DNA of 34,205 nt from a virus (Duplodnaviria > Heunggongvirae > Uroviricota > Caudoviricetes): IMG/VR virus record IMGVR_UViG_2579778753_000004; one strand, written 5' to 3'. Below, one piece after another: positions 1,366 through 34,205 of this stretch; the first letter of the stretch is position 1; every line of letters starts with the position of its first letter. The notes below the pieces were generated by a model. That model had not been told where the DNA came from. It searched no databases and worked only from the letters and a program-made list of their open reading frames with translations. Made by a program: the position numbers and the translations under genes.

Positions 1366-1367
1366 TT

Positions 1368-2258: not shown

Positions 2259-2260
2259 AA

Positions 2261-2839: not shown

Positions 2840-3935
2840 CGGACACCCCGGTCATGTTAAGAGTGATCGCCGTGCAGTTTGCCCATTCGTTTTCTGCCAC
2901 CACCTTCAGCACCGGTGTCACCAGTTCGACCTGGTAGACCCCGGCAACGGACAGCACGCTGATAATCTGGCTGGGGACAATATCGCGCCCCAGCGTGGCG
3001 GTACGGGACGCTACCCAGTTCTGTATGGCGCTGTTGGCGTTGTCCTTTATAGAGTTAGCATCCTGGTCACGATAGATAGTGATGTTGGCTTCAATGGCGT
3101 AATCCACCTGCACAGGTGTTTTAGCCCGCACGGTATCAGTGAGCGGCCTGACTTTTTCGTCCGAGCATAAACTCTCTACAAGCGTAAGGATGCTGTCGTC
3201 CGGCAAGCCGGTGCTGAGCAGCGGATACAGTTCTACAGTGCCGGGAACCGGGGAAAGCACGGCAACATCGACAATATTGGGATGGGCCTGCATGGCATGA
3301 AAGCGGTATGCCATACGGCTTCCGGCGTTGGTGAATGATTCCGGGGCCAGTTTGATACGCTCGCGGAGCCTGTCATTGTCTTCCTGCTCAGAACCGCCAG
3401 AACTGGCCGCCATATTGGTCACCTGCAGGTCGACGTTATCAATCTCATCGAGCAACTGACGGACCTGCGCAGGCTGCCAGCCGTTGCCTGCGGCTCCCGG
3501 CTCGGTACAGGTGGCCGTGGCATTGACAAGCAGCAATCCGGCTTTCAGCACTACGTCCGTATCGGTTGCAAAAATAATGCTGTCGGAAGCGCTGACGCGG
3601 GTACCTGCCGGAATCAGCACATCAATGGCCAGTTCCTCATCCACGGAGAACTGGAGCGTGGTGGTGGCAGGCTGCGCGGCCAGTCGGTATACACCAACCA
3701 GTTCACCGAGGTAATCAATCATCGGCTCACGGGCAAAGGCGACCAGATTCTGTTTGGCCGCTTCCTGCGCCGCCACCCTGACCAGCATTTCGCGGTATGC
3801 CCACAGGTCAATCAACAGGCGCTCAGCCTGAGCGGGGTATAGCGTCTTGCCAGTTGCGGCTTCGTACTGTGCAATCATTTCAGCCGTGATTTTGTCAGCA
3901 TCACGTTCAATAAAATCGGGTTCTGTCAGCGCCAT
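2832..3935 (-). CDS. Baseplate J-like protein (P2 gpJ / Mu gp47 family)
   Basis: 367 aa, position and size; overlaps neighbours by a few nt. Confidence 0.7.
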   Translation of the reverse strand: MALTEPDFIERDADKITAEMIAQYEAATGKTLYPAQAERLLIDLWAYREMLVRVAAQEAAKQNLVAFAREPMIDYLGELVGVYRLAAQPATTTLQFSVDEELAIDVLIPAGTRVSASDSIIFATDTDVVLKAGLLLVNATATCTEPGAAGNGWQPAQVRQLLDEIDNVDLQVTNMAASSGGSEQEDNDRLRERIKLAPESFTNAGSRMAYRFHAMQAHPNIVDVAVLSPVPGTVELYPLLSTGLPDDSILTLVESLCSDEKVRPLTDTVRAKTPVQVDYAIEANITIYRDQDANSIKDNANSAIQNWVASRTATLGRDIVPSQIISVLSVAGVYQVELVTPVLKVVAENEWANCTAITLNMTGVSDG

Positions 3936-4273
3936 AGCAACTCCTGAGTCCGGGGTTGTCCGTCAGAGCCTTTCCAGCTCACCCGGAGCGTAAGATGTTC
4001 GCCGTCGACGGCGGGTTTAACCGACATAAGCTGGCAGCGAGGCTCCCAGCGGCGAATGGCATCGACGGATTCGCGCACCACATGCGGAATAGCCCGGTCA
4101 ATAGGCCAGTCGATATAAAGGTGCAGATTGCTGCCGAACTCCGGGCGATGCGGGTCGCTGCCGCGAGGAGTACGCAGGATGATTTGAATGGCCTGCCAGA
4201 TATCATCCAGCCCCCGGACGATTTCGCCAGGGGCCTGCAGAGCCGGTTGCCAGAATACTGAGGTTGTTTTCAT
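3926..4273 (-). CDS. Baseplate wedge protein, GPW/gp25 family
   Basis: 115 aa, gp25-like size and synteny between V-like and J-like genes. Confidence 0.7.
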   Translation of the reverse strand: MKTTSVFWQPALQAPGEIVRGLDDIWQAIQIILRTPRGSDPHRPEFGSNLHLYIDWPIDRAIPHVVRESVDAIRRWEPRCQLMSVKPAVDGEHLTLRVSWKGSDGQPRTQELLWR

Positions 4274-4327
4274 GGGGGCAGTATTGCCCCTGTGCGGGAA
4301 CGCCGATATTAAAGGCGTTTAAGAAGG

Positions 4328-4840
4328 TCAGTGGGAATGGTGATTAGAGTTCGGGCCGTCAGAGAGCATGCTGCCTGTCGAGTGGGCATTGCCGTTGATT
4401 TCAAGGTTGCCGTTCACCGTGGTGGTGTCAGCGGTCAAATCAATGGTTTTCCCCTTCAGGCTGATACCCACTGCAACCTCGATCACCACATGCTCGATAC
4501 CACCTTTGACTGTCAGCGTATGGGTCGCACGGTTATAGCTGAACTCTGCGCCATCCGCGTATTTCGTGCCCCGGACATGTTTGTCGCTGAACGGCGGTTT
4601 ATCGACTTCTGAGTACACCGCGCCCAGAATGACACCATCCTCGCCGTTGGCATCGAGCAGCACTTCAACCTGCTCCCCCACGTCAGGGAGCCAGTAATCC
4701 TTGTTATCCTGGGTATTGCGCTGCAGCACGTTAAGCCAGTTAGTGCGCAGGTTATCGCATTCCGGCAGACGAACGCGGGCCTGAACCTTGTCGGCATCGA
4801 CGGCGCTGACCGTACCGACCTGACGAGTGACGCCTGTCAT
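4328..4840 (-). CDS. Baseplate spike/assembly protein V-like
   Basis: 170 aa, gpV-like, followed by W and J homologues. Confidence 0.7.
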   Translation of the reverse strand: MTGVTRQVGTVSAVDADKVQARVRLPECDNLRTNWLNVLQRNTQDNKDYWLPDVGEQVEVLLDANGEDGVILGAVYSEVDKPPFSDKHVRGTKYADGAEFSYNRATHTLTVKGGIEHVVIEVAVGISLKGKTIDLTADTTTVNGNLEINGNAHSTGSMLSDGPNSNHHSH

Positions 4841-21658: not shown

Positions 21659-22308
21659 TTCTGTAATCCTTCCCGTTCGTCCAGCAGCCCGTTTATCTGG
21701 CTGCGCCAGATGCGGCACTGCTTCGCGTTGTCGATGATGTTGGCGAGGACATCACGCTGGGAGACGCCTGAGTTGCGTAGCCAGGCGTCAGCGGCTTCAG
21801 GTTGCCCGGACGCTGCGCCAGTGCCGGTGCCAGCGGCGGCAGTTGCGTCTGAATGACCGGTGTCGACGGATGCGTTGTCATATCCGAGCGCGGCGTTGTA
21901 CTGGCGCACGAAACCGCGAGTAAACACGCACTCAATGGGATGGCTCTTACCTTTTTCATCAATCCAGCGCTGTGTGACATCGTTAATTTGCCCCTGTAGT
22001 TGTTTGTTCTGGCTCTCCAGTTGAGCAATCTGCTCAAGGTAACTGGCTTCAGCCTGCTGCCCGGCGGCTACCTGTTCCTGATACCGTTTCGCCCAAGCCC
22101 GCAACGCAGCGTTCTCAAGCGTTGCCTGCTCCGTTTTGTACGTGTCGAATGCTGACTGCAACTCACTGACCGCCTTATCGCCGTCGCGCGTGGCGTTTTC
22201 ATGCCCGCTTTTGTAGCCCAGGTAATAAAGCCCAATCAGAAAAGCATTTATGACCACCGCCAGCAGCAGACTGCGCCACGGCAGATTTTTTAGCAGGTTA
22301 GTCCACAC
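21655..22308 (-). CDS. Rz-like inner-membrane spanin
   Basis: GTG start with GGAGG RBS overlapping the endolysin stop; N-terminal transmembrane segment WRSLLLAVVINAFLIGLYYLGY, then coiled coil. Confidence 0.6.
   Translation of the reverse strand: MWTNLLKNLPWRSLLLAVVINAFLIGLYYLGYKSGHENATRDGDKAVSELQSAFDTYKTEQATLENAALRAWAKRYQEQVAAGQQAEASYLEQIAQLESQNKQLQGQINDVTQRWIDEKGKSHPIECVFTRGFVRQYNAALGYDNASVDTGHSDATAAAGTGTGAASGQPEAADAWLRNSGVSQRDVLANIIDNAKQCRIWRSQINGLLDEREGLQK
21693..21959 (-). CDS. Rz1-like outer-membrane lipoprotein spanin, embedded in the +1 frame of Rz
   Basis: MKKVRAIPLSACLLAVSC... signal and lipobox-like Cys, then a Pro-rich mature region; wholly inside the Rz-like gene. Confidence 0.55.
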   Translation of the reverse strand: MKKVRAIPLSACLLAVSCASTTPRSDMTTHPSTPVIQTQLPPLAPALAQRPGNLKPLTPGYATQASPSVMSSPTSSTTRSSAASGAAR

Positions 22309-23035
22309 AGCTGCCGCCTCCCCAGGTGAGATAACGCGGGGCCAGTTCGTGCAGGATGCGCTGCGGATAATGACGGTTCTCCCGCCAGTTGGCAGTGCTG
22401 CGTCCGGCATTCACCGTGGCGACATGACCAAACCAGCGGGTGCTGTCCAGCCCCTGCTGCGAGGCCAGCCGTTTGTCCCGCTGTACCCAGCCCAGACCAC
22501 CGTTATAGCCTGACAGCGTCATGGCCATACGCTCGCAGTCATTGACGGCGCTGACGCGTTGCCACAGCCAGCGGTCATAGCTGACCAGCGCCCGGATGGC
22601 CCAAGACGGATTAAACGGTTCACGGCTGTTAAGCCCCGGCATCAGCTGACTTATCCAGTCAGCGGTGGTGGGCATAAACTGCGCCAGTCCCTGAGCGCCA
22701 ACCGGCGAGACCGCATCAGGTCGCCAGCCGCTTTCCTGATGCAGCTGCGCGGCGAAGTCGGCCACCGGCGCAGACATTCCCCATTCAAGCCGGGCATTAC
22801 GGATCACATCGTCGCGATACTGCAGCGCGGTCTGCGGTGGCTGGGCAGCGCGGGCCTGACTGAAGAAGCCGCCACACCAGAGCAGCCAGGCTACCGTTAC
22901 TGAACCAAAGAGCTGCCACCAGAAACTGTGCTTACCCGTTCGGGCCTGCCCGTGGCGGGCCAGTTCGATGCCCAGCCCCAGCAGTACCAGCACGGCCCAG
23001 ACAACCTGAGGCCAGTACATATAGAGGGTCATCAT
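22298..23035 (-). CDS. Lytic transglycosylase endolysin (SLT domain) with hydrophobic N-terminus (possible SAR-type)
   Basis: SLT catalytic motif ...QESGWRPDAVSPVGAQGLAQFMP...; about 60 N-terminal residues with two hydrophobic stretches. Confidence 0.8.
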   Translation of the reverse strand: MMTLYMYWPQVVWAVLVLLGLGIELARHGQARTGKHSFWWQLFGSVTVAWLLWCGGFFSQARAAQPPQTALQYRDDVIRNARLEWGMSAPVADFAAQLHQESGWRPDAVSPVGAQGLAQFMPTTADWISQLMPGLNSREPFNPSWAIRALVSYDRWLWQRVSAVNDCERMAMTLSGYNGGLGWVQRDKRLASQQGLDSTRWFGHVATVNAGRSTANWRENRHYPQRILHELAPRYLTWGGGSCVD

Positions 23036-23385
23036 TAAAGCCCCATCGCTACGGCCAGACAGACTGCAGCAACAATCAGCGCACGGCGGATTAGCGCAGC
23101 AGAAAAGACCAGGTGAAGGCCAGTCTGGACAGGGAAGCGACCATCAGCCATCAGCCTGTCATCATGCTTCAGGTACTGACCGGGACGGGCTTTGGGGAAA
23201 AGCGAACGGTCAAGCCAGTAGCCCAATACTGCCGCCAGCGTGATGAGTGATAGCTTGTAGACAACCACCGGCAGCTGCTGGGGCGATACCAGACCGATGG
23301 TGCCGAGCAGCAGCACAGCGGTCAGCAGCCAGCCGCTGAGACGTGGCTTTTTAACAGGGGGAATGAATTTTTTCAGGTTTTTCAT
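23035..23385 (-). CDS. Putative holin (three predicted transmembrane segments)
   Basis: Start at ATG 23385 (MKNLKKF...) with RBS AAGGAGA; first gene of the late operon, just upstream of the endolysin. Confidence 0.5.
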   Translation of the reverse strand: MKNLKKFIPPVKKPRLSGWLLTAVLLLGTIGLVSPQQLPVVVYKLSLITLAAVLGYWLDRSLFPKARPGQYLKHDDRLMADGRFPVQTGLHLVFSAALIRRALIVAAVCLAVAMGL

Positions 23386-23497
23386 GAGCGTCTCCTTGTG
23401 TAGTGGAGACAGCATCACAAATGGTCGGGGAAAGGGATTTTAAACAGCGTTAATAGTGAGGATGCAGACGTGAACCGCATGATGGCTTTGAAAGAAC

Positions 23498-23529
23498 GAC
23501 CAGCCCGGTGCGGTAACACCAGGCTGGTC
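23498..23529. promoter_or_regulatory. 32-bp palindrome in the divergent late/dam control region
   Basis: GACCAGCCCGGTG-CGGTAA-CACCAGGCTGGTC, 13-bp arms with one mismatch; GACCAG recurs in direct orientation at 23558 and 23583. Confidence 0.4.
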
Positions 23530-23632
23530 ATCAACCCACAGGTATGCACTGTGAGCCGACCAGGGTTCAGTCAGTCTCGCGAGACCAGACTAGCCTGCCA
23601 TATTTTCATTGATTGCAAAAGGCTTACGGATA

Positions 23633-24403
23633 ATGAAAGAACAATCTTTACCCATCGTCCCATGGATTGGCGGTAAACGTCGTCTGGCGAAGCATATTTT
23701 ACCATTGTTTCCGGCCCATACCTGCTATGTGGAGCCGTTCTGCGGGGCAGCTGCGCTCTATTTCCTAAAGACTCCCAGCAAGACCGAAGTCATTAACGAT
23801 ATCAACGGGGAACTGGTGAACCTCTATCGGGTGGTCAAGCATCATCTGGAAGAATTTATTCGCCAGTTCAAATGGGCGCTGGTCAGCCGTCAGATTTACA
23901 AATGGTTGCAGGATACGCCGGAAGAAACGCTCACCGACATTCAGCGGGCGGCCCGGTTCTACTACCTGCAGAAACAGGCATTTGGCGGCAAGGTCGCCGA
24001 TCACACATTCGGTACCTCTACAACCAGTGCGCCGCGCTTCAATTTGCTGCGTATTGAGGAAGAACTGTCGATGGCACACCTGCGCCTGTCGAGAACGCTG
24101 ATAGAGCATCTGGACTGGCACCAGTGCATAGAGCGATATGATCGCCCGCATACGCTGTTCTACTGTGACCCACCGTACTGGGGAACGGAAGGCTATGGTG
24201 TGGAGTTCGGGCTGGAAAACTATGATCACATGGCAGATTTAGCGCGAAGGATCAAAGGGAAGATGATTATATCAGTGAACGATATCCCGGAAATGCGGCA
24301 GGTATTCAACGGTCTGAACATGCAGTCGGTTGATATCAGCTACAACCTTAAGGTAACAGGCAAACCCAGCCCGAAGAAAGAGCTGGTAATTTGTAATTTT
24401 TGA
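23633..24403 (+). CDS. DNA N6-adenine methyltransferase, Dam-like (orphan)
   Basis: N-terminal PWIGGKRRL and catalytic DPPY (YCDPPYWGTEGYG) motifs; start taken at ATG 23633 (the ORF track starts at a TTG at 23609). Confidence 0.8.
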   Translation: MKEQSLPIVPWIGGKRRLAKHILPLFPAHTCYVEPFCGAAALYFLKTPSKTEVINDINGELVNLYRVVKHHLEEFIRQFKWALVSRQIYKWLQDTPEETLTDIQRAARFYYLQKQAFGGKVADHTFGTSTTSAPRFNLLRIEEELSMAHLRLSRTLIEHLDWHQCIERYDRPHTLFYCDPPYWGTEGYGVEFGLENYDHMADLARRIKGKMIISVNDIPEMRQVFNGLNMQSVDISYNLKVTGKPSPKKELVICNF

Positions 24404-24420
24404 AAGAGGTAGTTAAAGGT

Positions 24421-24443
24421 GGTGGTGCATCTGCAGCACCACC
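24421..24443. terminator. Candidate terminator hairpin between convergent dam and lipoprotein genes
   Basis: GGTGGTGC-ATCTGCA-GCACCACC, 8-bp GC-rich stem; on the minus strand it is followed by UUUAACUACCUCUUU. Confidence 0.4.
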
Positions 24444-24450
24444 TAAACAT

Positions 24451-24984
24451 TTAATCCTGCCTTGGACAAGTCCAATAATCATTATCTGGCTCTGGTGAAT
24501 AAGCTTTCAAACAACCTGCTCGCGGGGTCTTACCATCATCTGTCATAGGAACTTTTTCCTTATCAAGTTTCACGGTCAGGTCTCCACCAGGAACATCCGT
24601 TTTATCGAAAAAAACAGCCTGACATGCTGATTTAGATATTTTCACTTCGTGGGCATTATTTGATATGAACAAATAACAATTATGACCAGAGGCTATGTAG
24701 TCACTTGGAATATTATTTTCGTCTTTAATATGAAACTGCACCGTTGTCACCGGGCGTTCGCTATCCTCGGATACTTCGACTTTTTCAAAACTGTCCGCGT
24801 ACTTATCCAGGCCGGGGAGTTGTTGGCGAATAAACGGTAATTCGCGATTTACAACCGGATTATCTGTTTCAACGCTAAAAACCGCGTGCTCCTTAGCTGT
24901 GGTGGACGTATCAGCAGGATCGGTATTATCTCCACACCCAGATAAAACAAATATCAACGGTAAAAATAATTTGCGCATAGTCAT
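24451..24984 (-). CDS. Secreted lipoprotein, low-GC accessory gene downstream of the repressor
   Basis: MTMRKLFLPLIFVLSGC lipobox LSGC; a hand count over 100 nt gave about 44% GC versus visibly GC-richer flanks; same strand as, and 36 bp downstream of, the repressor gene; RBS GAGGT. Confidence 0.7.
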   Translation of the reverse strand: MTMRKLFLPLIFVLSGCGDNTDPADTSTTAKEHAVFSVETDNPVVNRELPFIRQQLPGLDKYADSFEKVEVSEDSERPVTTVQFHIKDENNIPSDYIASGHNCYLFISNNAHEVKISKSACQAVFFDKTDVPGGDLTVKLDKEKVPMTDDGKTPRAGCLKAYSPEPDNDYWTCPRQD

Positions 24985-25019
24985 GTCCTTATACCTCTAA
25001 TGTTCTTAATAGGAACAGA

Positions 25020-25430
25020 TTAACCCGTATTTTTTAATCTTTCGAACGCTGCGGACAGCTCCTTAAGCTGTTTTTCCATATCAATCATTCGCTGTTTTTC
25101 CTCAGCGCCTCGCAGCAACTCTTTTCGCACCTCTGGCTCCAGTTGGTTGAGCAGCTCCAATAACTTCAGATCAGACTGGTTGAAATGCTGCTCCTGATTA
25201 GCTGGCTGTGCTTTCTCTACCCCAACAGCTTCCCCTTTACCAGTAAGTAGCCAATCTATTGATATGTTCAAATGGGTGCTTAGCGCAACAAGAGCCTCTG
25301 CATTAGGTTCTCTCTCTCCACGCAGATAGTTTTGAAGTGAGCGATATGGAATTTTTGACAAGTCTGACAATGCCTTAATTGTCAGACCCTTAGCATCCAT
25401 CGCTTCGCGCAATCTCTCTTTTATACTCAT
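25020..25430 (-). CDS. Prophage repressor (XRE/Cro-CI type HTH, C-terminal coiled coil)
   Basis: Start at ATG 25430 (MSIKERLREAMDAKGLTIKALSDLSKIPYRSLQNYLRGE...); divergent from the early operon. Confidence 0.75.
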   Translation of the reverse strand: MSIKERLREAMDAKGLTIKALSDLSKIPYRSLQNYLRGEREPNAEALVALSTHLNISIDWLLTGKGEAVGVEKAQPANQEQHFNQSDLKLLELLNQLEPEVRKELLRGAEEKQRMIDMEKQLKELSAAFERLKNTG

Positions 25431-25446
25431 TTGAACATATCTCAAT

Positions 25447-25474
25447 TTGACATACCCGTTTGGGTGCGTACAAT
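25447..25474 (+). promoter_or_regulatory. Early promoter (Pe-like) with overlapping operator repeats
   Basis: -35 TTGACA (25447-25452), 16-bp spacer, -10 TACAAT (25469-25474); inverted TTGGGT/ACCCAA pair brackets the -10 and a further ACCCAA lies downstream. Confidence 0.6.
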
Positions 25475-25518
25475 AGACCCAATAGAGTACATCATAACCC
25501 AACAGGAACACGGTGCAT

Positions 25519-25743
25519 ATGAACAAACAACAAGTTCGGGCACGGCTGGTTGAAAGAGGCAGTAGCTTGCGCCAGTTCGCGCTTAACGCGGGCTATGAGC
25601 CACGAACAGTCACCCAGGCTGTCAGCCGCTGGGCAGGCAAAAGCGAACTTCCACGCGGTCGTTTGACTTATCGGATTTTGCGAGACCTTTCGGTCGCAAT
25701 AGGCAAAGAAGTTACCCCCGGCATCCTCAAGGAGGCGTCATGA
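25519..25743 (+). CDS. ner: Ner-like DNA-binding protein
   Basis: 75 aa ...LRQFALNAGYEPRTVTQAVSRWAG...; first gene of the early operon, RBS AGGAA. Confidence 0.7.
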   Translation: MNKQQVRARLVERGSSLRQFALNAGYEPRTVTQAVSRWAGKSELPRGRLTYRILRDLSVAIGKEVTPGILKEAS

Positions 25744-26045
25744 GTAAACCAAATACATCAAGCTCAGGTACCCGTATTTTGCGTGTCCTTAAGGCTTTAC
25801 GCGGTCACGCTCTGAACGGTGTTTCTAACGGCGAGCTGGCGTCAGCTCTGGGCGAGTCCCCGGCGAATATCAATCGGGCGCTCAATACCCTTATCGAAGA
25901 AGGACTGGCCCTGAAACTGGATAACGGGCGTTTTGCCCCAGGAGTCCAGCTCTTACAAATCGCCATGGCGCACAGTACCGAAATGGCGCGGGCGCAGGAT
26001 CGTATCAATGAAATTAACCAGCGTGTTATGGCTGGTAGTCGCTAA
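25740..26045 (+). CDS. Small winged-helix DNA-binding protein
   Basis: 101 aa, HTH-like ILRVLKALRGHALNGVSNGELASALGESPANINRALNTLIEEGLA; ATGA overlap with ner; RBS AAGGAGG. Confidence 0.55.
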   Translation: MSKPNTSSSGTRILRVLKALRGHALNGVSNGELASALGESPANINRALNTLIEEGLALKLDNGRFAPGVQLLQIAMAHSTEMARAQDRINEINQRVMAGSR

Positions 26046-26054
26046 GGAGTTGAA

Positions 26055-26963
26055 ATGGGACGCACAAAATCACAACCAGTTGAACTAGTGGAAGATGCAC
26101 CGCTGACCGATGGTCTCAGTGTCAGTCTTAATGCTATGTCCGAACATCGCCTCGAAATCATGCAGCAGTTTGGTGATGGCCTGCCGTATGAACGTGATCG
26201 TATTGTCCATGAAACACGTTTTTATATGGCTCAGAGTGCTGAAGCCATGCTGGAGGCGGGTAAACGACTGGTAATTCTCAAAGAAAATGAACCACATGGT
26301 GACTTCATCGACATCGTTGAGTCTCAGTTGTCCCTATCCAAACGTACCGCGCAGGTGATGATGCAAGCATCCCTCAAATATTTGTCTCCCAAGCTTGAAC
26401 CAAAAGCGCAAGCGCTTGCGCTTTTGGGTAAAACAAAGCTGTTTGAGTTGATGACGGAAGATGACGAAGACCTCGTCGAATTAGCCGATGGCGGCACGAT
26501 TGCTGGTATGAGCCTCGATGATATTGATCGCATGACAAGCCGCGAACTGAAAGCGGCCCTACGCGAAGCGCGTGAAACCAACGCAGCACAACAGCGCGTG
26601 CTTGCCGACAAAAACGAAAAAATCGACTCGCTCTCCACAAAACTGGAGAAGAAATCCCGTATCCAACCGCCCAAGCCTGACGAAGAGGTGAAGAAGCTGC
26701 GTGCGGAAGTTACAGCGTTAGCGGTTGAGGCGGAATCTGCCATCGCCGTTCGACTGTCCAGCGCCTTTGAGACCCTGTGCGCATACTGTGCTGAAAATAT
26801 GATTGATACCCCCAGAGACTTTATGGCCGGTCTGGTCTGCCAGTTGGAAAGCACCGCGCGTAGCCTGCGCTCCACATTTGACCTGCCGGACGAGCCGACA
26901 GGCAACGCCGCCCCTTCATGGCTGACTGACCCGACGCCAGAGATTAACGGGCAGGAGGCATAA
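26055..26963 (+). CDS. Conserved early protein of unknown function (DUF3102-like, from memory)
   Basis: 302 aa, coiled-coil middle region, RBS AAGGAG; lies between Ner and transposase. Confidence 0.5.
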   Translation: MGRTKSQPVELVEDAPLTDGLSVSLNAMSEHRLEIMQQFGDGLPYERDRIVHETRFYMAQSAEAMLEAGKRLVILKENEPHGDFIDIVESQLSLSKRTAQVMMQASLKYLSPKLEPKAQALALLGKTKLFELMTEDDEDLVELADGGTIAGMSLDDIDRMTSRELKAALREARETNAAQQRVLADKNEKIDSLSTKLEKKSRIQPPKPDEEVKKLRAEVTALAVEAESAIAVRLSSAFETLCAYCAENMIDTPRDFMAGLVCQLESTARSLRSTFDLPDEPTGNAAPSWLTDPTPEINGQEA

Positions 26964-26966
26964 CCC

Positions 26967-28736
26967 ATGAGTGCCGCCCTGACTGAACGACTGGTTTATG
27001 TTGCCCGCGCGGCACGTGACGCGGGGCATGGTAAGCGTGGTGCGATATATGATGCCGCCTGCGCCGAACTGGGCATTTCCCGCGCCACCCTGCTGCGCAA
27101 GCTGAAGGAGGTATCAGTGACTGACAAACGTAAAAAACGCGCCGATGCCGGGCGCAGTGCCCTGAGCCGCGACGAAGCCGCGCTGATATCTGCCACGCTG
27201 CGCGAGGCCACCCGTAAGAACGGTAAGCGCCTGTATTCCATCGCGGATGCGGTGGAGACCCTGCGGTCAAACGGCTTTATCACTGCTGGCAGAACGGACG
27301 AGGCCACAGGCGAGTTTTTCCCGCTGTCCGAGGACACCATCAGCCGCGCCCTGCGGAACTATGGTCTGCACCCGGAACAGCTTGACGCACCGGCCCCGTC
27401 GTCCGAGATGGCCAGCCTGCATCCCAATCACGTCTGGGAGATTGATGCCTCACTTTGTACGCTTTACTACCTGAGCAACGGCCATAAAGGGTTGCAGGTG
27501 ATGGACAGCTCGAAGTTCTACAAGAACAAGCCTGCCAACATCGCCCGCATCGCCAGTGACCGCGTGTGGAGTTACGAGATTACCGACCATACCAGCGGCT
27601 GGATTTACGTTGAGTACGTGATGGGTGCGGAATCTGGTGAGAACCTCTGTTCTGTGCTTATCAACGCCATGCAGGAGCGCGGCGGCGCGGACGTGCTGCA
27701 CGGCGTGCCGAAAATACTCTACCTTGATCCCGGTTCGGCGAACACCGCTGGCATGACGAAAAACATGTGCCGCTCGCTGGGCATCAATCTGATAGCGCAC
27801 AAGCCGCATAACGCCCGCGCCACCGGGCAGGTGGAAAAGGCCCGTGACATTATCGAACGTAAACTGGAGCCGGGTCTCAAATTCCAGCCGGTTCATAGCC
27901 TGGACGAACTGAACGCGCTGGCGGTGAAATGGCGCAGCCACTTTAACGCCACGGCGGTCCACAGCCGCCACGGTAAAACCCGCACGGATATCTGGCTGAA
28001 GATTACTGCTGACCAGCTGAAAAAAGCGCCATCCGTTGAGGTTTGCCGCGAACTGGCGGTGGCCGCACCGGAACTCCGTAAGGTCACACCAAAACTGCGC
28101 GTCTCGTTCCGGGGCAATGAGTTTGACGTTTCGACGGTACCGGGCGTACTGGTCGGCGAAAAACTGATGATTACCCGTAACCCGTGGCGCAGCGATGTGG
28201 CGCAGGTGGTGCTGACCGGTGAGGACGGTCACGAGACGTTCTTCCTGGTCGAGGAGGTCAGAAAGAACGAGTTCGGCTTTGCCGAAAGCGCGGCGGTATT
28301 TGGCGAAAACTACAAAGCCCTGCCGGAGACCCCGGCGCAGACGGCGGCAAAAGAAATCGAAGAGCTGGTTACGGGCACCGATAACGCCACCGATGCAGCT
28401 GCTGCACGCAAGGCGAAGGCGCTGCCGTTCGGCGGGCGACTTGACCCGTACAAACATATCGACGACACCACGCTTCCTGCCTATATGCCGAAGCGCGGTC
28501 AGGCTTCAGACGTGCGCGGGCCGCGTATTGAGCAGCGTCCGCTGACCCATGTGGAGGCGGCGAAAGCCCTGCGCGAGAAGTTTGGCGCTAACGGCCATAT
28601 CTGGACGCCGGAACATTACCGCCAGTTAACGGCGCAGTACCCGGATGGCGTACCTGAAGCCGCGCTGGATGAGGTGATGGTTACCCTGACCACTCCGGCC
28701 CGCAACAGCGTTATCAGCATCGTTAACGGTAACTGA
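26967..28736 (+). CDS. DDE transposase (MuA-like)
   Basis: 589 aa; candidate catalytic Asp at ...VWEIDASL... and ...LYLDPGSANT...; followed by the ATPase gene; RBS AGGAGG. Confidence 0.85.
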   Translation: MSAALTERLVYVARAARDAGHGKRGAIYDAACAELGISRATLLRKLKEVSVTDKRKKRADAGRSALSRDEAALISATLREATRKNGKRLYSIADAVETLRSNGFITAGRTDEATGEFFPLSEDTISRALRNYGLHPEQLDAPAPSSEMASLHPNHVWEIDASLCTLYYLSNGHKGLQVMDSSKFYKNKPANIARIASDRVWSYEITDHTSGWIYVEYVMGAESGENLCSVLINAMQERGGADVLHGVPKILYLDPGSANTAGMTKNMCRSLGINLIAHKPHNARATGQVEKARDIIERKLEPGLKFQPVHSLDELNALAVKWRSHFNATAVHSRHGKTRTDIWLKITADQLKKAPSVEVCRELAVAAPELRKVTPKLRVSFRGNEFDVSTVPGVLVGEKLMITRNPWRSDVAQVVLTGEDGHETFFLVEEVRKNEFGFAESAAVFGENYKALPETPAQTAAKEIEELVTGTDNATDAAAARKAKALPFGGRLDPYKHIDDTTLPAYMPKRGQASDVRGPRIEQRPLTHVEAAKALREKFGANGHIWTPEHYRQLTAQYPDGVPEAALDEVMVTLTTPARNSVISIVNGN

Positions 28737-28746
28737 GGAGGAAGGC

Positions 28747-29913
28747 ATGCTGGTACTGAAGCAACAACTGAAAGAGGCCCGCATCCCGCAGGCGGTGGTG
28801 GCAAGAGCCGTCGCCGTTTCCGAGGCCACGCTGGCCCAGATTGTGAACCATAACGAGTGGCCACGCACCAGCCCCGAAGAGGTACGCCAGCGTCTGGCGT
28901 TGTATCTGGAAAGTAAGGGGATTGATACAGCGAAAAGTTTTGATGCTGCACAGGGCGCTGTCACGCCCCGTACAGCGGGTACTACCGATAAAACCAACCT
29001 CAGTGAGGAAGAGAACATGTTACTCAAAAAGCAGGTGTTATTTCCAGCAACCAAAAAAGCGTTTGGCCTTTTCCGTGATCCGTTCGCCGATGAAGCCATG
29101 CAGGGCGCGGACGATGTGTTCACCACGCCGGATATCCGCTACGTGCGTGAGGCGCTGTTCCAGACCGCCCGCCATGGTGGCTTTCTGGCGGTTATCGGCG
29201 AGTCCGGTGCGGGTAAATCCACGCTGCGCCGCGACCTGATTGAACGCGTCAACCGCGAGAACGCGCCGGTGATTGTAATTGAGCCATACATCATCGCCAT
29301 GGAAGACAACGACGTGAAGGGCAAAACCCTGAAGGCGGCAGCTATCGCCGAGGCCATCATCAGCACCATCGCGCCGCTGGAGAGTATCAAACGCAGCCAG
29401 GACGCCCGCTTCCGCCAGTTGCACCGCGTCCTGAAGGACAGCAGTCAGGCGGGTTTCAGCCACGTTCTGGTGATTGAGGAGGCCCACAGCCTTCCCATTC
29501 CGACGCTGAAGCACCTTAAACGCTTCTTCGAACTGGAGTCCGGCTTCAAAAAACTGCTGTCCATCGTGCTGATTGGCCAGCCTGAACTGGCGGACAAACT
29601 GTCCGAACGCAACATGGAAGTCCGTGAGGTCGTCCAGCGCTGCGAGGTGGTTGAATTGCTGCCGCTGGACAACAGCCTCGAAGAGTTTCTGACGTTCAAA
29701 CTGCAACGTGCCGGTAAGCAGCTGGCCGACATCATGGACGCCAGCGCAGTGGAAGCCATCCGCGCCCGTCTGAGCAATCTGGGTGGTAGCCGTAAAAGCA
29801 TGGTCAGCCTGCTGTATCCGCTGGCCGTCAGTAACCTGGTGATAGCCGCCATGAATCTGGCTGCTGAAATCGGGGTTCCGCAGGTCAACGCCGACGTCGT
29901 CAAAGGAGTTTAA
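28747..29913 (+). CDS. Transposition helper AAA+ ATPase (MuB-like)
   Basis: 388 aa, Walker A GESGAGKST, Walker B-like HVLVIEEAH; immediately downstream of the transposase. Confidence 0.8.
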   Translation: MLVLKQQLKEARIPQAVVARAVAVSEATLAQIVNHNEWPRTSPEEVRQRLALYLESKGIDTAKSFDAAQGAVTPRTAGTTDKTNLSEEENMLLKKQVLFPATKKAFGLFRDPFADEAMQGADDVFTTPDIRYVREALFQTARHGGFLAVIGESGAGKSTLRRDLIERVNRENAPVIVIEPYIIAMEDNDVKGKTLKAAAIAEAIISTIAPLESIKRSQDARFRQLHRVLKDSSQAGFSHVLVIEEAHSLPIPTLKHLKRFFELESGFKKLLSIVLIGQPELADKLSERNMEVREVVQRCEVVELLPLDNSLEEFLTFKLQRAGKQLADIMDASAVEAIRARLSNLGGSRKSMVSLLYPLAVSNLVIAAMNLAAEIGVPQVNADVVKGV

Positions 29914-29915
29914 TC

Positions 29916-30185
29916 ATGAAATCCATCGCCGATATCAACCAGCAGATGAACAAGGTGCAGTCCGCCATTATGGCGCTCAACGCCATGAACACTACCGTGC
30001 AGAGCGTCATGATTGCTGGCAGTAAGCCGGTTATCCGTATCGCCCGCAACGGGCACTGTGCCCGCCTGCTGGAGCAGGGCAAAGCGAGTTATACCCATGT
30101 TGGCCATGACGGCTCAGGGCGCTTCCGTCAGGGCGTCTTTGAGTTGCATGGCTGCCGTATTACCTGGTCAGAGTCGTTACATTAA
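29916..30185 (+). CDS. Hypothetical early protein
   Basis: 89 aa, RBS AAAGGAG, tightly coupled to B. Confidence 0.5.
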   Translation: MKSIADINQQMNKVQSAIMALNAMNTTVQSVMIAGSKPVIRIARNGHCARLLEQGKASYTHVGHDGSGRFRQGVFELHGCRITWSESLH

Positions 30186-30202
30186 CCATAAGGTGAACAG
30201 AG

Positions 30203-30814
30203 ATGAGCGAAGTAAATAAAGAAAACTACATGAAAGACCGCAAGGGGCGTCTGGTGCCGGTTGACCAGGTGTCTGACTATGACCTTGCGATGGACTCTTT
30301 CGTTAAAGAACAGGTTGTCGCCGCGAAGGTTAAACGCGATGAACTCAGTGACTTCAAGCGTCGTGCCTTTGACGAGTGCTATGCCTGGCTTGACCTTGTG
30401 GCCGAGAAGTACGGCAGAACGCGTGGCGGTGCCAAAGGCAACGTGACCTTCAGCAGCTTCGACGGTGCTCAGCAGATCACCATCCGCGTGCAGGAAACCC
30501 TGACCTTCGGGCCAGAGCTGCAGATTGCCAAAGACCTGATAGACGAGTGCGTCACCGAGTGGTCGGAAGGCGCGAACGCCAACCTGCGGGCCATCATCAG
30601 CGATGCTTTTCAGGTGGACAAAGAGGGCCAGCTTAATACCGGACGTATTCTTTCCCTGCGCCGCGTCAAGATTCAGGACGAGCGCTGGAACCGGGCAATG
30701 GAGGCCATATCGGAATCACTGCAGGTGGCAATGTCCAAAACCTATATTAATTTCCGGGAGAAAGATAAACACGGGAAGCTAATTAATATTCCGTTAGATA
30801 TCGCTGCCATTTAA
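30203..30814 (+). CDS. Conserved Mu-like early protein (DUF3164-like, from memory)
   Basis: 203 aa, RBS AGGTGA. Confidence 0.5.
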   Translation: MSEVNKENYMKDRKGRLVPVDQVSDYDLAMDSFVKEQVVAAKVKRDELSDFKRRAFDECYAWLDLVAEKYGRTRGGAKGNVTFSSFDGAQQITIRVQETLTFGPELQIAKDLIDECVTEWSEGANANLRAIISDAFQVDKEGQLNTGRILSLRRVKIQDERWNRAMEAISESLQVAMSKTYINFREKDKHGKLINIPLDIAAI

Positions 30815-30892
30815 TTTTAATTCAATTTCTTTTTATTTCGGCGTCAGTGCCGTGGGCTTCTGCACGCCGAAAACAGCATTAAGGAATAAATC

Positions 30893-31081
30893 ATGTCCAT
30901 CAAATGTATCAACTGCCAGAAAGGTATCACCACCCTGAAGTTCAGCGACGCCAGCGTCATTTCCTCCGGTAAGTACCGCGTACCAGCCGTCCTCATCACG
31001 CTGGTATGCCCACACTGTAGCCAGCATTACTACACCGAAGTCCCGGCCATGGAATTCATCCCTTGTGAGGCAAAGAAATGA
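30893..31081 (+). CDS. Small zinc-ribbon protein
   Basis: 62 aa with C-x2-C ... C-x2-C (CINCQ ... CPHCSQ); RBS AAGGAA. Confidence 0.5.
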   Translation: MSIKCINCQKGITTLKFSDASVISSGKYRVPAVLITLVCPHCSQHYYTEVPAMEFIPCEAKK

Positions 31082-31179
31082 TTACTGCAAAAGAAGCCGA
31101 AAAACGGACCCGTGAAATTGTCGCGGAATATATCAGTGAATGTGGTTGTGAAAATCCCAACCATATCGGCAGGTATTAA
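31078..31179 (+). CDS. Micro-ORF (33 aa), translationally coupled
   Basis: ATGA overlap with the upstream stop; MITAKEAEKRTREIVAEYISECGCENPNHIGRY. Confidence 0.3.
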   Translation: MITAKEAEKRTREIVAEYISECGCENPNHIGRY

Positions 31180-31193
31180 TCAAATTAATCAGC

Positions 31194-31349
31194 ATGGCTT
31201 CACACGCCATCGTAGCAACAAATGGCCTAGATCAGGCTATTTACGTTCTTCACGCCACCAGTGACCACCTGAGAAAAATGCCGCCGCTGTACGAGCTGGA
31301 AATTACTGAGGACGGCCACGTGAAAGTTATCGGCGTATCACGCCATTGA
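31194..31349 (+). CDS. Micro-ORF (51 aa)
   Basis: ATG-initiated frame in a gene-dense operon; weak RBS. Confidence 0.3.
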   Translation: MASHAIVATNGLDQAIYVLHATSDHLRKMPPLYELEITEDGHVKVIGVSRH

Positions 31350-31364
31350 TTTGGGGAAGATAAG

Positions 31365-31661
31365 ATGAAAGGCATGAAATTATATAACCGTTCGACGATC
31401 TACAATCTGGCCCTCAAAACCTTCGGCCCAGAAGCTCAGGCTCTGAAGCTGATGGAAGAAGCTGCCGAACTGGCCGCTGCTGCTGCCCGCAACATGAACG
31501 GACTGGGCAATGAAGTTGATCTGGCAGGCGAACTGGCTGACGTTGAAATCATGATTGAACAGTTCCGCCTAAACGGGATGGGCCTGATGATTGATTTTCA
31601 TAAGCAGAAAAAGCTGGAACGCCTTGCCGAACGCCTGGGGGTGACTTATGCCGCAGAATAA
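31365..31661 (+). CDS. MazG-like nucleotide pyrophosphohydrolase-type small protein (tentative)
   Basis: 98 aa; acidic helix motifs LMEEAAELAAAAA and LAGELADVEIMIEQ; RBS GGGGAAG. Confidence 0.45.
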   Translation: MKGMKLYNRSTIYNLALKTFGPEAQALKLMEEAAELAAAAARNMNGLGNEVDLAGELADVEIMIEQFRLNGMGLMIDFHKQKKLERLAERLGVTYAAE

Positions 31662-32337
31662 TGAAAAGCTGCTGGAGAAGTTAAAAAAGCTACTTGCGCT
31701 GGCTAAATCCGATAACCCCCATGAAGCGGCACTGGCACTGCAACGCGCCCAGAAACTGATGCAGGCCTATAACATCACCCAGGCTGACCTCGCACTCAGT
31801 GATATTGATGAAAGCGTCAGTAACTACTGGGCTGCAGGTAGCGTTAATCCGCCGCGTTATATGCTGGGTCTGCTGGATATTATCCAGGTGGCATTTGGCG
31901 TTAAGTCTATTATTCACTCCGGCTTTAAACCCGGCGTTGGCTTTTACGGTAATAAAGACCGGGTTGAACTGGCCTCATATACATGGGAGGTACTGGCCAG
32001 ACAGTTAATCATGGCCCGTAAAAACTATATTCGACAGCAGAATAAAAGAATCAAAAACACGACCAAGACCAGCCGTGGTGACAAATTTGCCGAAGGGTGG
32101 GTTCTGGCCGTGCGTAGCGAGGTTCATTTATTTGCTATGTCCCGCGAAGAACGGGAGCTGGCAAACCTCTGGCTTGAACAAAAATACCCTGATTCAGGAA
32201 CAACCTCTGGCCGCAAAGCCGGTAAATCCCGTGACGCGGACATGTCCCGCCACATCGGTTACAGAGAGGGAGAAAACGTCCGTCTACATCAGCCTGTCAG
32301 CGGGCAGGAACAGCGGAAGCTGGGGAGTGGCTTATGA
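31648..32337 (+). CDS. DUF2786-like protein
   Basis: 229 aa; N-terminal KLLALAKSDNPHEAALALQRAQKLM as I recall for DUF2786; RBS GGGGGTGA. Confidence 0.5.
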   Translation: MPQNNEKLLEKLKKLLALAKSDNPHEAALALQRAQKLMQAYNITQADLALSDIDESVSNYWAAGSVNPPRYMLGLLDIIQVAFGVKSIIHSGFKPGVGFYGNKDRVELASYTWEVLARQLIMARKNYIRQQNKRIKNTTKTSRGDKFAEGWVLAVRSEVHLFAMSREERELANLWLEQKYPDSGTTSGRKAGKSRDADMSRHIGYREGENVRLHQPVSGQEQRKLGSGL

Positions 32338-32549
32338 TGGCTGAATCAATTGTATGTGCCTTGTTCTGGTATGGTCTCGTGGGGTGGTGTACTGCTGAAC
32401 TGCACCGCCGTTCAGGGTTTTACTCACGTTACAGCGGTACCGGACACTGGATCAGTTGGGCCGTTATGTTCCTGTGCTGGCCTGTCGCGCTTCCTTTATA
32501 TGTCGACTATATCGGTGGCGCAGGTAAAAGGAGTGGCAATGATGACTAA
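32334..32549 (+). CDS. Small membrane protein (two predicted transmembrane helices)
   Basis: 71 aa; ATGA overlap with the upstream gene; RBS GGGGAG. Confidence 0.5.
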   Translation: MMAESIVCALFWYGLVGWCTAELHRRSGFYSRYSGTGHWISWAVMFLCWPVALPLYVDYIGGAGKRSGNDD

Positions 32550-32967
32550 GCAGCGTCTTATTCAACTCATTCATATTGCCCGCAGCGACCTCCAGATGGA
32601 TGAGGACACCTACCGCCAGATGCTACAGGGGCTGACCGGCAAAGCCTCAACCAAAGGGATGGATACCCCACAACTAAACCGCGTGCTGGAATCAATGAAA
32701 AAGAAAGGCTTTCGCATTAAGCCTGCCGGGAAAGCCAAGTCCGGCTTACCGCTCGACAGCCATCCGCAGTCAAAGAAAATCCGTGCGCTATGGCTTGAAA
32801 TGGCTGCCGCAGGCATCGTCCGTGACAGTTCAGAGCAGGCGCTGGCGCTGTGGGTTAAACGGGAAACCGGCATCAGCGCGTTACGCTGGCTCAGCAATGA
32901 GCAGGCAAGTAGCGTGATTGAGAAACTGAAGAAGTGGCAGCGCAGAGCTGCGGGAGTGAAGCAATGA
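32539..32967 (+). CDS. gemA: GemA-like protein (Mu gp16 family)
   Basis: Start at ATGATG 32539 with RBS AAAGGAG; ...LIQLIHIARSDLQMDEDTYRQML... aligns with Mu GemA as I recall it. Confidence 0.65.
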   Translation: MMTKQRLIQLIHIARSDLQMDEDTYRQMLQGLTGKASTKGMDTPQLNRVLESMKKKGFRIKPAGKAKSGLPLDSHPQSKKIRALWLEMAAAGIVRDSSEQALALWVKRETGISALRWLSNEQASSVIEKLKKWQRRAAGVKQ

Positions 32968-33353
32968 GCGACCTGAATCAGTTTCGTAGTAAAGGGCCGG
33001 AACTGTTGGTGGAACTGGCACAGCATACCTCTGAGACTGTCCGCGAGATTATTGATATCGAACCCGCAGTTGCCGACCAGATTGGTCAGGCCGTCGCGAA
33101 CCGCATGATGCAGGTCTGGGGTGGGCAAAACGTCTATTTTCCGATGGGCATGGTCTGGAAGGTCAGCCAGCGCGACCGGGAAATTTTCCTGGAGTTTGAC
33201 GGGCGCAACCATCACGAACTGGCCCGCAAATTTGGTGTTTCACTACAGTGGGTTTACAGCGTGGTGAAGCGGGTCAGAAAAGAAGAACTGGATCGGATGC
33301 AGGGCAAACTGTTTGATGGCGAACCTGATGCCGATACAGGGAAAAAGGAGTAA
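32964..33353 (+). CDS. mor: Mor/C-family transcriptional activator
   Basis: ...VWGGQNVYFPMG...FDGRNHHELARKFGVSLQWVYSVVKR... aligns with Mu Mor (GGQ.VYIP ... FNGRN..EL...YGV....VY) from memory; ATGA overlap with gemA. Confidence 0.75.
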   Translation: MSDLNQFRSKGPELLVELAQHTSETVREIIDIEPAVADQIGQAVANRMMQVWGGQNVYFPMGMVWKVSQRDREIFLEFDGRNHHELARKFGVSLQWVYSVVKRVRKEELDRMQGKLFDGEPDADTGKKE

Positions 33354-33382
33354 TATCTGCAATCAGGCTGGTGCGAGTTCTG

Positions 33383-33434
<52 letters not shown>

Positions 33435-33443
33435 ATCCAGTCT

Positions 33444-33514
33444 CTTCCCATGTTGACCCAGTACTTCCCATAATTATCTCACTTATCCCCTGTCATTTAT
33501 CTCAAGTCTAATCA
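33444..33514. repeat. Prophage right terminus with subterminal direct repeats (putative transposase-binding sites)
   Basis: CTTCCCAT at 33444 and 33464 (20-bp period); TTATCTC at 33475 and 33498 (23-bp period); element ends ...AATCA at 33514. Confidence 0.55.
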
Positions 33515-34205
33515 GCTCACGGCCCTGATAGATAACGCCTTTTGAATCGCAAACCACGATGTTATGTTTTTGCAGACCCAGCGCTACCAGCAGGTTCATA
33601 CAGGCGATTGCTGCGGCACCCGCGCCGGAAACCACCATCCGCACGTCGGAGATGTTTTTCTCCACCACGCGCAAGCCGTTGAGGATGGCGGCAGTGCTGA
33701 TGATTGCCGTGCCGTGCTGATCGTCGTGGAATACCGGAATATTCATCCGCTCGCGCAGTTTCTGTTCAATATAGAAACATTCTGGCGCTTTAATGTCTTC
33801 GAGGTTGATTCCGCCGAAGGTCGGTTCGAGCGCAGCGACAACTTCAATAAATTTGTCCGGGTCGAGTTCATCAACTTCAATGTCAAATACATCAATCCCG
33901 GCGAATTTCTTAAACAGAACGCCCTTGCCTTCCATCACCGGTTTGCCAGCCAGCGCGCCAATGTTGCCTAACCCCAGCACCGCCGTACCGTTAGAGATCA
34001 CCGCCACCAGGTTACCGCGCGCGGTATATTTGTAGGCTTTTAACGGGTCTTTTTCGATTTCAAGACAAGGTGCGGCAACGCCTGGTGAGTAGGCCAGCGC
34101 CAGATCGCGCTGCGTTGCCAGAGGCTTGGTTGGAGAAACCTGGATTTTCCCTGGAACTGGAAATTCATGGAAATCAAGTGCACTTTGTTTTAACTGGTCA
34201 TCCAT
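33483..34205 (-). pseudogene. maeB: maeB 5' fragment (NADP-dependent malic enzyme) interrupted by the prophage
   Basis: The translation matches the N-terminal ~229 residues of E. coli MaeB as I recall them ([53 protein letters not shown]...GVIYQGRE), then diverges into [10 protein letters not shown]-stop read from phage DNA. Host-derived DNA is 33515-34205. Confidence 0.8.

Follow-up and report, generated by a model that had tools for sequence, protein, structure and literature searches.

The gene at 23633–24403 of the analysed stretch of DNA (34,205 nucleotides; hereafter, the window) is, as far as its sequence allows us to judge, a real, intact and stand-alone DNA methyltransferase gene of the D12 or alpha class, related to Dam and carried by a common BcepMu-like (Bcepmuvirus-type) transposable prophage of enterobacteria, which is inserted here in the malic-enzyme gene of its host. 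The enzyme probably transfers methyl groups to the N6 position of adenine, a prediction that is based on its family, and we moderately favour the view that it methylates a fixed adenine-containing motif on phage DNA, guarding this DNA against restriction and possibly against MutH.

The coding sequence, which lies in an open frame spanning 23609–24403 on the plus strand, is identical to a 771-nt coding sequence of E. coli Ecol_542 whose product is named "DNA adenine methylase" in RefSeq (WP_000664222.1). The earlier note had described a methyltransferase with a DPPY motif at this place, and this description is borne out by a match to PF02086 (MethyltransfD12; E 1.1e-27, 97.9 bits versus a cut-off of 22), in which residues 11–232 of the protein correspond to profile positions 1–246 of 253, and by the presence of DPPY at residues 179–182. 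The protein also matches phrog_56, 'DNA methyltransferase' (E 4.6e-100), and its best PADLOC match is the MTase_II model PDLC03253 (E 8.6e-114), which is labelled 'Type II methyltransferase' and not 'orphan'. It scores barely above the cut-off of the 'dam' subfamily TIGR00571 (117.2 versus 114.85 bits) and far under that of NF008152, the EcoDam equivalog (69.8 versus 441 bits). An antisense ORF within the gene (23765–24229, 154 aa) was considered and is taken to be spurious because no source annotates it.

The order of the motifs, with motif I followed by the target-recognition region and then by DPPY, is that of the D12 or alpha class, and DPPY is typical of N6-adenine enzymes. Among 99 representatives, these being the full-length members of the family clusters at 50% identity, D179 and P180 are each kept in 97 and P181 and Y182 each in 95, and DPPY is invariant across a 62-sequence alignment of the clade. 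Besides motif I, N55 and D56 are conserved among the relatives of the methyltransferase. A comparison with the copy carried by PhiKM (84% amino-acid identity) gave a dN/dS of 0.075 at a dS of 1.31, values that indicate strong purifying selection on the gene. Given the conservation of DPPY and this low dN/dS, a catalytic motif mutated in relatives, which had been named earlier as the mark of an inactive protein, is not what we found. When an AF2 model built from the 62-sequence alignment was used in Foldseek, the best PDB matches were EcoDam, DpnM and T4Dam (E 1e-12 to 1e-7), and the fold of M.CbeI was also among the matches. The mean pLDDT of the model is 69.5, with a confident catalytic core and values below 60 in the recognition region (residues 67–136), and for this reason the model does not settle the alignment of the DNA-reading hairpin discussed below.

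Table 1. Features of the prophage and of the region around the methyltransferase gene (positions in the window; a dot denotes no strand).
Feature	Position	Strand	Remarks
Tail, head, terminase and lysis genes, ending with SLT transglycosylase and holin genes	about 1368 to 23385	-	
Holin gene (PF13272), first gene of the lysis/structural (late) operon	23035..23385	-	context
Inverted repeat upstream of the methyltransferase gene	23498..23529	-	17-bp stem, -31.9 kcal/mol, z -6.5, followed by UUCUUUC
Perfect 12-bp palindrome GTCTCGCGAGAC	23574..23585	.	unique in the window; at the expected -35 position; candidate regulator site
-10-like hexamer CATATT	23599..23604	+	29 nt before the ATG; no acceptable -35
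Methyltransferase CDS	23633..24403	+	771 nt including stop; ATG 23633, TGA 24401-24403; 256 aa
Motif I, EPFCGAA (residues 34-40)	23732..23752	+	AdoMet-binding, FxGxG-type; E34, F36 and G38 conserved
Residues 117-137 (FGGKVADHTFGTSTTSAPRFN)	23981..24043	+	putative clade-specific stand-in for the DNA-reading beta-hairpin of EcoDam/T4Dam; 7 residues shorter (hhalign)
Catalytic motif IV, DPPY (residues 179-182)	24167..24178	+	sequence, conservation
Hairpin separating the methyltransferase gene from the convergent 177-aa ORF	24417..24444	.	-22 and -19 kcal/mol on the two strands
177-aa lipoprotein-like ORF, downstream of the repressor gene	24451..24984	-	signal peptide and lipobox (LSGC)
HTH repressor gene (Cro/CI-type)	25020..25430	-	context
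Early genes: Ner-like, IclR-like HTH, DUF3102, rve transposase, ExeA-type B, GemA-like, Mor-family activator (32934-33353)	25513-33353	+	
Truncated host malic-enzyme gene	33483-34205	-	

The left neighbours of the methyltransferase gene are the holin (PF13272) and SLT transglycosylase genes, those on the other side are the 177-aa ORF and the repressor gene, and neither a restriction enzyme nor a PADLOC defence protein was found among the neighbours in the window. The 177-aa ORF, which has no Pfam or PADLOC match, is not a candidate nuclease because its signal peptide and lipobox predict that its product is exported. The propositions that no restriction gene is adjacent and that the gene is transcribed divergently from the late operon, whose lysis and structural genes run on the minus strand from 23385 leftwards, both stand. 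The identical protein is found in the same neighbourhood in all eight of the places listed, with no nuclease-like neighbour; no nuclease partner was found beside the relatives in phiE125, VP882, TJ1, Bise and the Sideroxydans, Chromobacterium and Pseudomonas prophages, nor in any of the about 15 contexts examined. The additional genes in the KP12 and PhiKM islands, encoding a DUF2441 protein and a P-loop protein (phrog_3787), were considered as a hidden restriction partner and rejected, as they gave no nuclease or defence-system matches. Judged by this gene context, the methyltransferase is an orphan. Homologues of Mom, Com, Gin or Hia5-type proteins were not detected in the window either (tblastn, all E > 0.1).

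Region 22000–27000 shares 99.9% identity with 'Escherichia phage Phi06_2974 B' and 96% with 'Klebsiella phage KP12'. The same prophage is located elsewhere in E. coli Ecol_542, beside an aldolase pseudogene, which is expected because the phage transposes. In BcepMu, the slot that matches the island with the methyltransferase gene contains three unrelated small genes and no methyltransferase gene, and the islands of KP12 and PhiKM contain further unrelated genes besides the methyltransferase gene. These differences in gene content imply that the 'central island' is a variable cargo site. The island genes are compositionally foreign to the backbone, which has a GC content of 55–60%: the methyltransferase gene has 50.7%, the repressor gene 44.8% and the 177-aa ORF 41.8%. 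The methyltransferase gene is accessory cargo in this island, which separates the late promoter from the repressor operon.

In the case of the target, the earlier designation of the enzyme as Dam-like and adenine-specific needs to be divided: it is true of the family and the fold only, while the hairpin that reads GATC appears to be remodelled, and 'adenine, GATC' is to be regarded as annotation. When EcoDam is aligned with the window protein by phmmer, R124 is placed opposite A122, L122 opposite K120, P134 opposite S132 and K9 opposite P10. When a clade profile is aligned with EcoDam and T4Dam by hhalign, 7 residues of the hairpin are missing from the clade; R124/R116 then faces position 122, which is variable, and P134 faces T125. 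In the MAFFT alignment, a third variant, the place of the GATC-reading arginine could be taken by a conserved K/R120. None of the three methods, phmmer, MAFFT and hhalign, shows conservation of the hairpin of EcoDam, T4Dam and DpnM ([YF]-N/S-G/N-[LM]-x-R ... P-F-G) or of residues equivalent to R124/R116 and P134. Because the GATC-reading residues of EcoDam and T4Dam are not conserved, GATC specificity is a guess, and the chance that the target motif is GATC or a GAT-containing site seems to us somewhat short of even. The segment that replaces the hairpin has the clade consensus FGGK-x4-T-[FY]-G-T-[SA]-T-T, and conservation of segment 67–160 across the clade is 70%, versus 71.5% in the N-terminal core. 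A recognition segment that is conserved like the catalytic core suggests that the clade shares one defined target. Methylation data for the window protein or its close relatives were not found in the literature surveyed, and searches on WP_000664222.1 and on Bcepmuvirus methylation gave nothing relevant.

The base composition of the prophage provides additional information on the possible target. GATC is depleted: a second-order Markov model predicts 150 sites, and 65 are observed (O/E 0.43). The corresponding ratio is 0.38 in KP12, 0.54 in PhiKM, 1.02 in BcepMu and 0.76 in E. coli K-12, from which a 50-kb sample was used as the host baseline for the palindrome statistics. The density of GATC is 5.2 per kb in the methyltransferase gene versus about 2 per kb elsewhere, and region 23386–23632 contains no GATC. 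The depletion implies that GATC, methylated or not, is a liability for the prophage, and it is compatible with selection against unmethylated GATC. It fits a GATC enzyme that supplements the Dam of the host, and it fits equally well an enzyme that does not cover GATC. It should be noted that such strong depletion is less expected if the enzyme methylates GATC efficiently, and that a GATC enzyme is largely redundant in Dam+ hosts. Hexamer palindromes composed of G and C only are almost purged from the prophage (6 observed versus 112 expected), and the O/E of A/T-containing palindromes is 0.70–0.80. Among A-containing sites, GAGCTC (0 observed, 5.4 expected), CGTACG (0 and 5.5), ATGCAT (0 and 3.9) and TCCGGA (2 and 10.4) are scarce. 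In PhiKM, which carries the methyltransferase gene, the G/C-only palindromes are avoided far less (O/E 0.36).

The methyltransferase gene forms a self-contained unit: it has an upstream region of its own, is flanked by a hairpin on each side and differs from the backbone in base composition. The inverted repeat upstream of the gene looks like a terminator, because its minus-strand stem precedes UUCUUUC, and as such would shield the lysis operon from leftward read-through. The hairpin downstream of the gene is a likely bidirectional terminator, since it is stable on both strands. Both hairpins would halt leftward transcripts of the repressor operon before these reach the lysis genes, and the downstream one would, in addition, terminate transcription of the methyltransferase gene. 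The upstream hairpin accompanies this gene in KP12 as well, where the DUF2441 gene is inserted between the hairpin and the late promoter, a pattern that places the start of the methyltransferase unit at about 23487.

A consensus scan did not find a sigma-70 site upstream of the gene, and a promoter at CATATT is only tentative because no acceptable -35 was found. A second copy of the palindrome GTCTCGCGAGAC was not found in the window. The gene is likely regulated by an activator or through an operator, as its upstream region suggests. The upstream regions of the holin and protease genes have only CACTATT in common, and neither has anything convincing in common with the upstream region of the methyltransferase gene. 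There is no Rfam match in 22900–25700. As for a Com-like ORF, the upstream region contains only an overlapping ORF (23470–23676) that has neither CxxC pairs nor a Pfam match, and tblastn with the Com protein of Mu was negative. In a lysogen culture of phi1026b, the transcript of gp27, a close relative, was present at 21,563 RPKM versus 1,000–4,700 RPKM for the structural genes, that is, at 5–20 times the structural-gene level (PMC2920897).

The closest phage relatives of the window protein (65–68% identity) are phiE125 gp27, phi1026b gp27, VP882 gp37 and the proteins of Curvibacter phage TJ1 and Pseudomonas phage Bise. The homologue (66–73% identical) follows the tail-fibre genes as the last gene in TJ1, in Bise and in prophages of Sideroxydans lithotrophicus and P. 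aeruginosa, and it is preceded by an ORF encoding a Com zinc ribbon (PF10122, E 3e-9 to 1e-15), which overlaps the start of the homologue in three of the four copies (Sideroxydans, P. aeruginosa prophage and Bise). The Com ORF of Bise is absent from the annotation. For a broader view, the upstream regions in the best 80 viral contigs encoding a relative were searched with an HMM of six Com proteins. In 11 of these best 80 contigs, with at least 80% identity, the gene is internal and without Com, as in the BcepMu-like type. Among the contigs with 64–77% identity, a Com-like ORF is located directly upstream in 20 of 68 (E 1e-17 to 1e-29), one of the 68 being cut too close upstream for Com to be scored, and in about 36 of the 68 the gene ends at most 1.1 kb from the end of the contig. 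Judging from these positions, the clade is often at a contig end and partly behind com, like mom in Mu. The placement had been said earlier to differ from that of mom, and so it does in the lineage of the window; it often does not in the relatives with 64–77% identity, many of which occupy the mom slot behind com. This mom-like placement of relatives in other Mu-like phages is the strongest available argument for late, self-protective modification of DNA, and it lends support to the anti-restriction function that the earlier note had listed as one of the usual roles of phage orphan methylases.

Mom itself yields N6-(1-acetamido)-adenine and not 6mA, and in Mu-like (FluMu-type) prophages it can be replaced by the non-specific adenine methyltransferases Hia5, Hin1523 and Nma1821; a Hia5-type enzyme in place of Mom shields DNA from many restriction enzymes (PMC3299994). 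B3 ORF48 is mentioned in the study of these Mom-replacing enzymes (PMC3299994), and the right end of phage B3 (34500–38439, the last 3.9 kb) contains no annotated methyltransferase gene. SuMu gp53 (COG3392), which lies behind Com and occupies the mom slot, served as our proxy, by position, for Hia5-type enzymes. BLASTP aligned the window protein with this proxy over 26 residues near DPPY only (E 0.027), and the PF02086 score is 23 bits for SuMu gp53 versus 98 bits for the window protein.

Other functions have to be weighed against self-protection. The gene could be an epigenetic or regulatory moron whose product, synthesized in the lysogen, alters expression by methylating the DNA of both host and prophage, thereby affecting the lysis–lysogeny switch or host traits. 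The position in a lysogeny-side accessory island beside the repressor operon, the GC content below that of the backbone, the insulating hairpins on both sides and the level of the phi1026b gp27 transcript in lysogen culture, well above that of the structural genes (PMC2920897), would all suit such a moron. We nevertheless consider it unlikely, as there is no consensus sigma-70 promoter upstream of the gene, the gene is convergent to the repressor gene and not co-transcribed with it, and candidate sites do not cluster in regulatory regions, GATC being absent from 23386–23632. Moreover, the late, Com-controlled mom slot occupied by relatives in the clade is a lytic-phase arrangement, and, according to a passage in a citing paper, methylation in phiE125 lysogens is confined to excised phage DNA (PMC10688831). 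An enzyme with relaxed or non-GATC specificity, one that modifies adenine over a broad range as Mom or Hia5 do and thereby counters many restriction enzymes at once, would agree with the 7-residue deletion in the hairpin and the loss of the GATC-contact residues, and also with the com–mom-like layout in relatives. Com-type translational control is known for Mom, which is toxic. The near-absence of the G/C-only hexamer palindromes, which an adenine enzyme is not able to protect, set beside the milder deficit of the A/T-containing ones, points in the same direction. However, the A-containing sites GAGCTC, CGTACG, ATGCAT and TCCGGA are scarce or absent too, and PhiKM has the gene yet avoids the G/C-only palindromes much less. 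The window protein has no relation to the Hia5-type family beyond common motifs, as judged from the BLASTP comparison with SuMu gp53, and the replacement segment varies little within the clade, which points to a defined target. In addition, the window copy is without com, and a promiscuous enzyme that is not regulated should be harmful; on these grounds, relaxed specificity is quite unlikely. The same low credence is given to the extension of this idea to the whole clade, in which the enzymes would have a different or relaxed adenine target and provide broad anti-restriction equivalent to that of Mom, under control of Com in Mu-like phages and free of Com in the enterobacterial BcepMu-like lineage. 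If it were true, the purge of G/C-only palindromes would be a complementary strategy for sites that are beyond an adenine enzyme.

The two remaining alternatives concern the chemistry and the activity of the enzyme. M.CbeI (7M6B), a D12-fold enzyme that has DPPY and modifies N4 of cytosine, matches the window protein over the full length with 52 bits, compared with 57 bits for EcoDam, so that an M.CbeI-like N4-cytosine methyltransferase has to be considered. It is very unlikely, given that DPPY is usual in N6-adenine enzymes, that the window protein is above the curated cut-off of the Dam subfamily (TIGR00571), and that phiE125 gp27 reportedly yields N6-methyladenine. That the gene is an inactive gene or a decayed remnant of a restriction-modification system might be read from the 'Type II methyltransferase' label of its best PADLOC model, but the intact motifs, the dN/dS of 0.075, the lack of a nuclease partner in about 15 contexts and the retention of the identical sequence in thousands of assemblies make this hardly credible.

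According to the reading that we prefer, the self-protection of phage DNA, the product of the gene would be an active S-adenosylmethionine-dependent DNA N6-adenine methyltransferase that methylates the DNA of the phage, and possibly that of the lysogen, at one short fixed motif. With the phage's own DNA methylated in this way, progeny DNA would leave the cell fully modified and would be shielded from the restriction enzymes of the next host; phage DNA that replicates rapidly and is under-methylated may also be guarded from MutH where the host is Dam+. The methyltransferase of the window would in effect replace Mom, with this copy freed from the control of Com and provided with its own regulatory region, which is probably controlled by an activator or an operator.

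It should be noted that the gene as such is ordinary, because the identical gene has already been annotated in thousands of genomes. The sequence of WP_000664222.1 is present on at least 1000 Enterobacterales contigs and in 2682 blocks of the assembly collection, and a homologue, mostly with ~81% nucleotide identity, is present in 556 of 5426 complete E. coli genomes. Nearly all of the twelve matches listed are annotated as DNA adenine methylase, and the family comprises 678 clusters at E <= 1e-30. The gene is, in other words, already known as a widespread and routinely annotated prophage orphan methyltransferase gene. About 10% of the complete E. coli genomes, and many genomes of Klebsiella, Salmonella, Enterobacter and Citrobacter, carry the gene or a close copy. 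Given this wide carriage, a second adenine-methylation activity that goes unrecognised would affect how methylomes, restriction barriers and host ranges of enterobacteria are read. The Com-controlled copies in the mom slot provide a testable view of the exchange of DNA-modification modules among transposable phages.

In comparison with known systems, EcoDam, T4Dam and DpnM, which are the best PDB matches, have the fold and the order of the motifs in common with the window protein; they are about 23–25% identical to it, and their GATC-reading hairpin is 7 residues longer. Much closer are phiE125 gp27, phi1026b gp27 and VP882 gp37 (phrog_56), with 65–66% amino-acid identity over the full length, which share the motifs, the shortened segment (FGGK...TFGT[SA]TT) and the orphan status in temperate phages. 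The backbones that carry these copies are unrelated to the window, one being that of a siphovirus, in which the gene follows the lysis genes, and the other that of a telomere phage, in which it follows tail gene D. Unlike these copies, that of the window is located in a BcepMu-like central island, on the strand opposite to the late genes. The com–methyltransferase modules of TJ1, Bise, Sideroxydans and P. aeruginosa are found at the right end and include com, whereas the window gene is internal, without com and divergent. The Mom/Com system of Mu is likewise a case of DNA modification by a transposable phage, and relatives of the window gene fill the mom slot under Com; however, Mom has no sequence relationship to the window protein, and its position in the genome differs as well. 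Hia5, Hin1523 and Nma1821 are also Dam-related DPPY enzymes and seem to follow an ecological logic in common with the window protein. Judged by the SuMu gp53 proxy, the Hia5 family is a sequence family distinct from the clade of the window protein, and Hia5-type genes are syntenic with mom at the right end, whereas the window gene lies inside the prophage, with the late promoter on one side and the repressor operon on the other.

The G/C-only hexamer palindromes are nearly absent from the prophage: taken over its whole length (window positions 1-33400), the eight of them occur six times where 112 occurrences are expected, an observed/expected ratio (O/E) of 0.05. CCGCGG (20 expected), GGCGCC (19.5 expected), CGGCCG (11 expected) and GCGCGC (10 expected) are missing altogether, and GCCGGC is found once for 22.8 expected. 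In the same interval, hexamer palindromes that contain A/T have O/E values of 0.70-0.80, and 4-bp G/C palindromes show no avoidance. This scarcity looks like a strong avoidance of six-cutter restriction sites. Compared with the 0.05 of our prophage, the ratio for the G/C-only class is 0.08 in the Klebsiella phage KP12 record, 0.36 in Escherichia phage PhiKM, 0.45 in a 50-kb sample of E. coli K-12 and 0.98 in BcepMu. GATC is also depleted in positions 1-33400, where its 65 occurrences amount to less than half of the 150 expected, and the four hexamer palindromes containing it are together seen only once, versus 16 expected. The methyltransferase gene itself, with four GATC sites in 771 nt, is comparatively rich in this sequence.

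Features of the window and of related phages
Feature	Position	Strand	Remarks
Tail-fibre-like ORF	window 16-771	+	left edge
Tail-fibre-like ORF	window 1368-2258	-	left edge, strand opposite to the 16-771 ORF
Strong hairpin	window 23498-23529		one of two bracketing the methyltransferase gene
Perfect 12-bp palindrome GTCTCGCGAGAC	window 23574-23585		where the -35 element of the presumed methyltransferase promoter would lie
Strong hairpin	window 24417-24444		other of two bracketing the methyltransferase gene
177-aa ORF	window 24451-24984	-	signal peptide plus lipobox (LFLPLIFVLSGC); immediately downstream of the repressor gene
Right prophage end and shortened malic-enzyme gene	window 33354-34205		the gene adjoins the prophage end
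PhiKM methyltransferase gene	L002 (PhiKM) 29908-30762		as annotated
Bise Com-type zinc-ribbon ORF, 70 aa	L006 (Bise) 3784-3996 = OR683401.1 36832-37044	+	unannotated; CAAC...CPRC

Both hairpins next to the methyltransferase gene are terminator-like for leftward transcription running from the repressor operon towards the lysis genes, and the 12-bp palindrome is present as a single copy within the window. The 177-aa ORF has a very low GC content (41.8%; GC3 35%); searches of Pfam and PADLOC gave no match for it, and its sole match is phrog_10002, a family of unknown function. The lysogen probably produces this protein, which we consider a candidate for lysogenic conversion or superinfection exclusion.

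Several database records of related phages deserve comment. GenBank places the entry OM835952.1 ('Klebsiella phage KP12 clone KP12_2') under Vequintavirinae, but its sequence is that of a complete BcepMu-like transposable prophage and probably represents host prophage DNA assembled together with a lytic phage. In Pseudomonas phage Bise, there is an overlap between the Com-type ORF and the start of the gene annotated as DNA adenine methylase. The annotation of the PhiKM methyltransferase gives it an N-terminal extension of 30 residues that is absent from every other homologue, and hence its start codon has probably been miscalled. It should be noted that the PhiKM annotation has no repressor gene between the methyltransferase gene and the early genes.

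At the right end of the prophage, the interrupted malic-enzyme ORF (240 aa) retains nothing beyond its N-terminal domain and the first part of the NAD-binding domain. In E. coli Ecol_542, the same prophage is adjoined instead by an aldolase pseudogene; both sites are the result of transposition into host genes. As for the left end, a Gin homologue was sought in the window and none lies inside it, and in KP12 a DNA invertase is located just past the corresponding tail-fibre region. Together with the opposite orientations of the two tail-fibre-like ORFs, this KP12 invertase suggests an invertible host-range segment at the left edge, comparable to the G segment of Mu, with its invertase outside the window.
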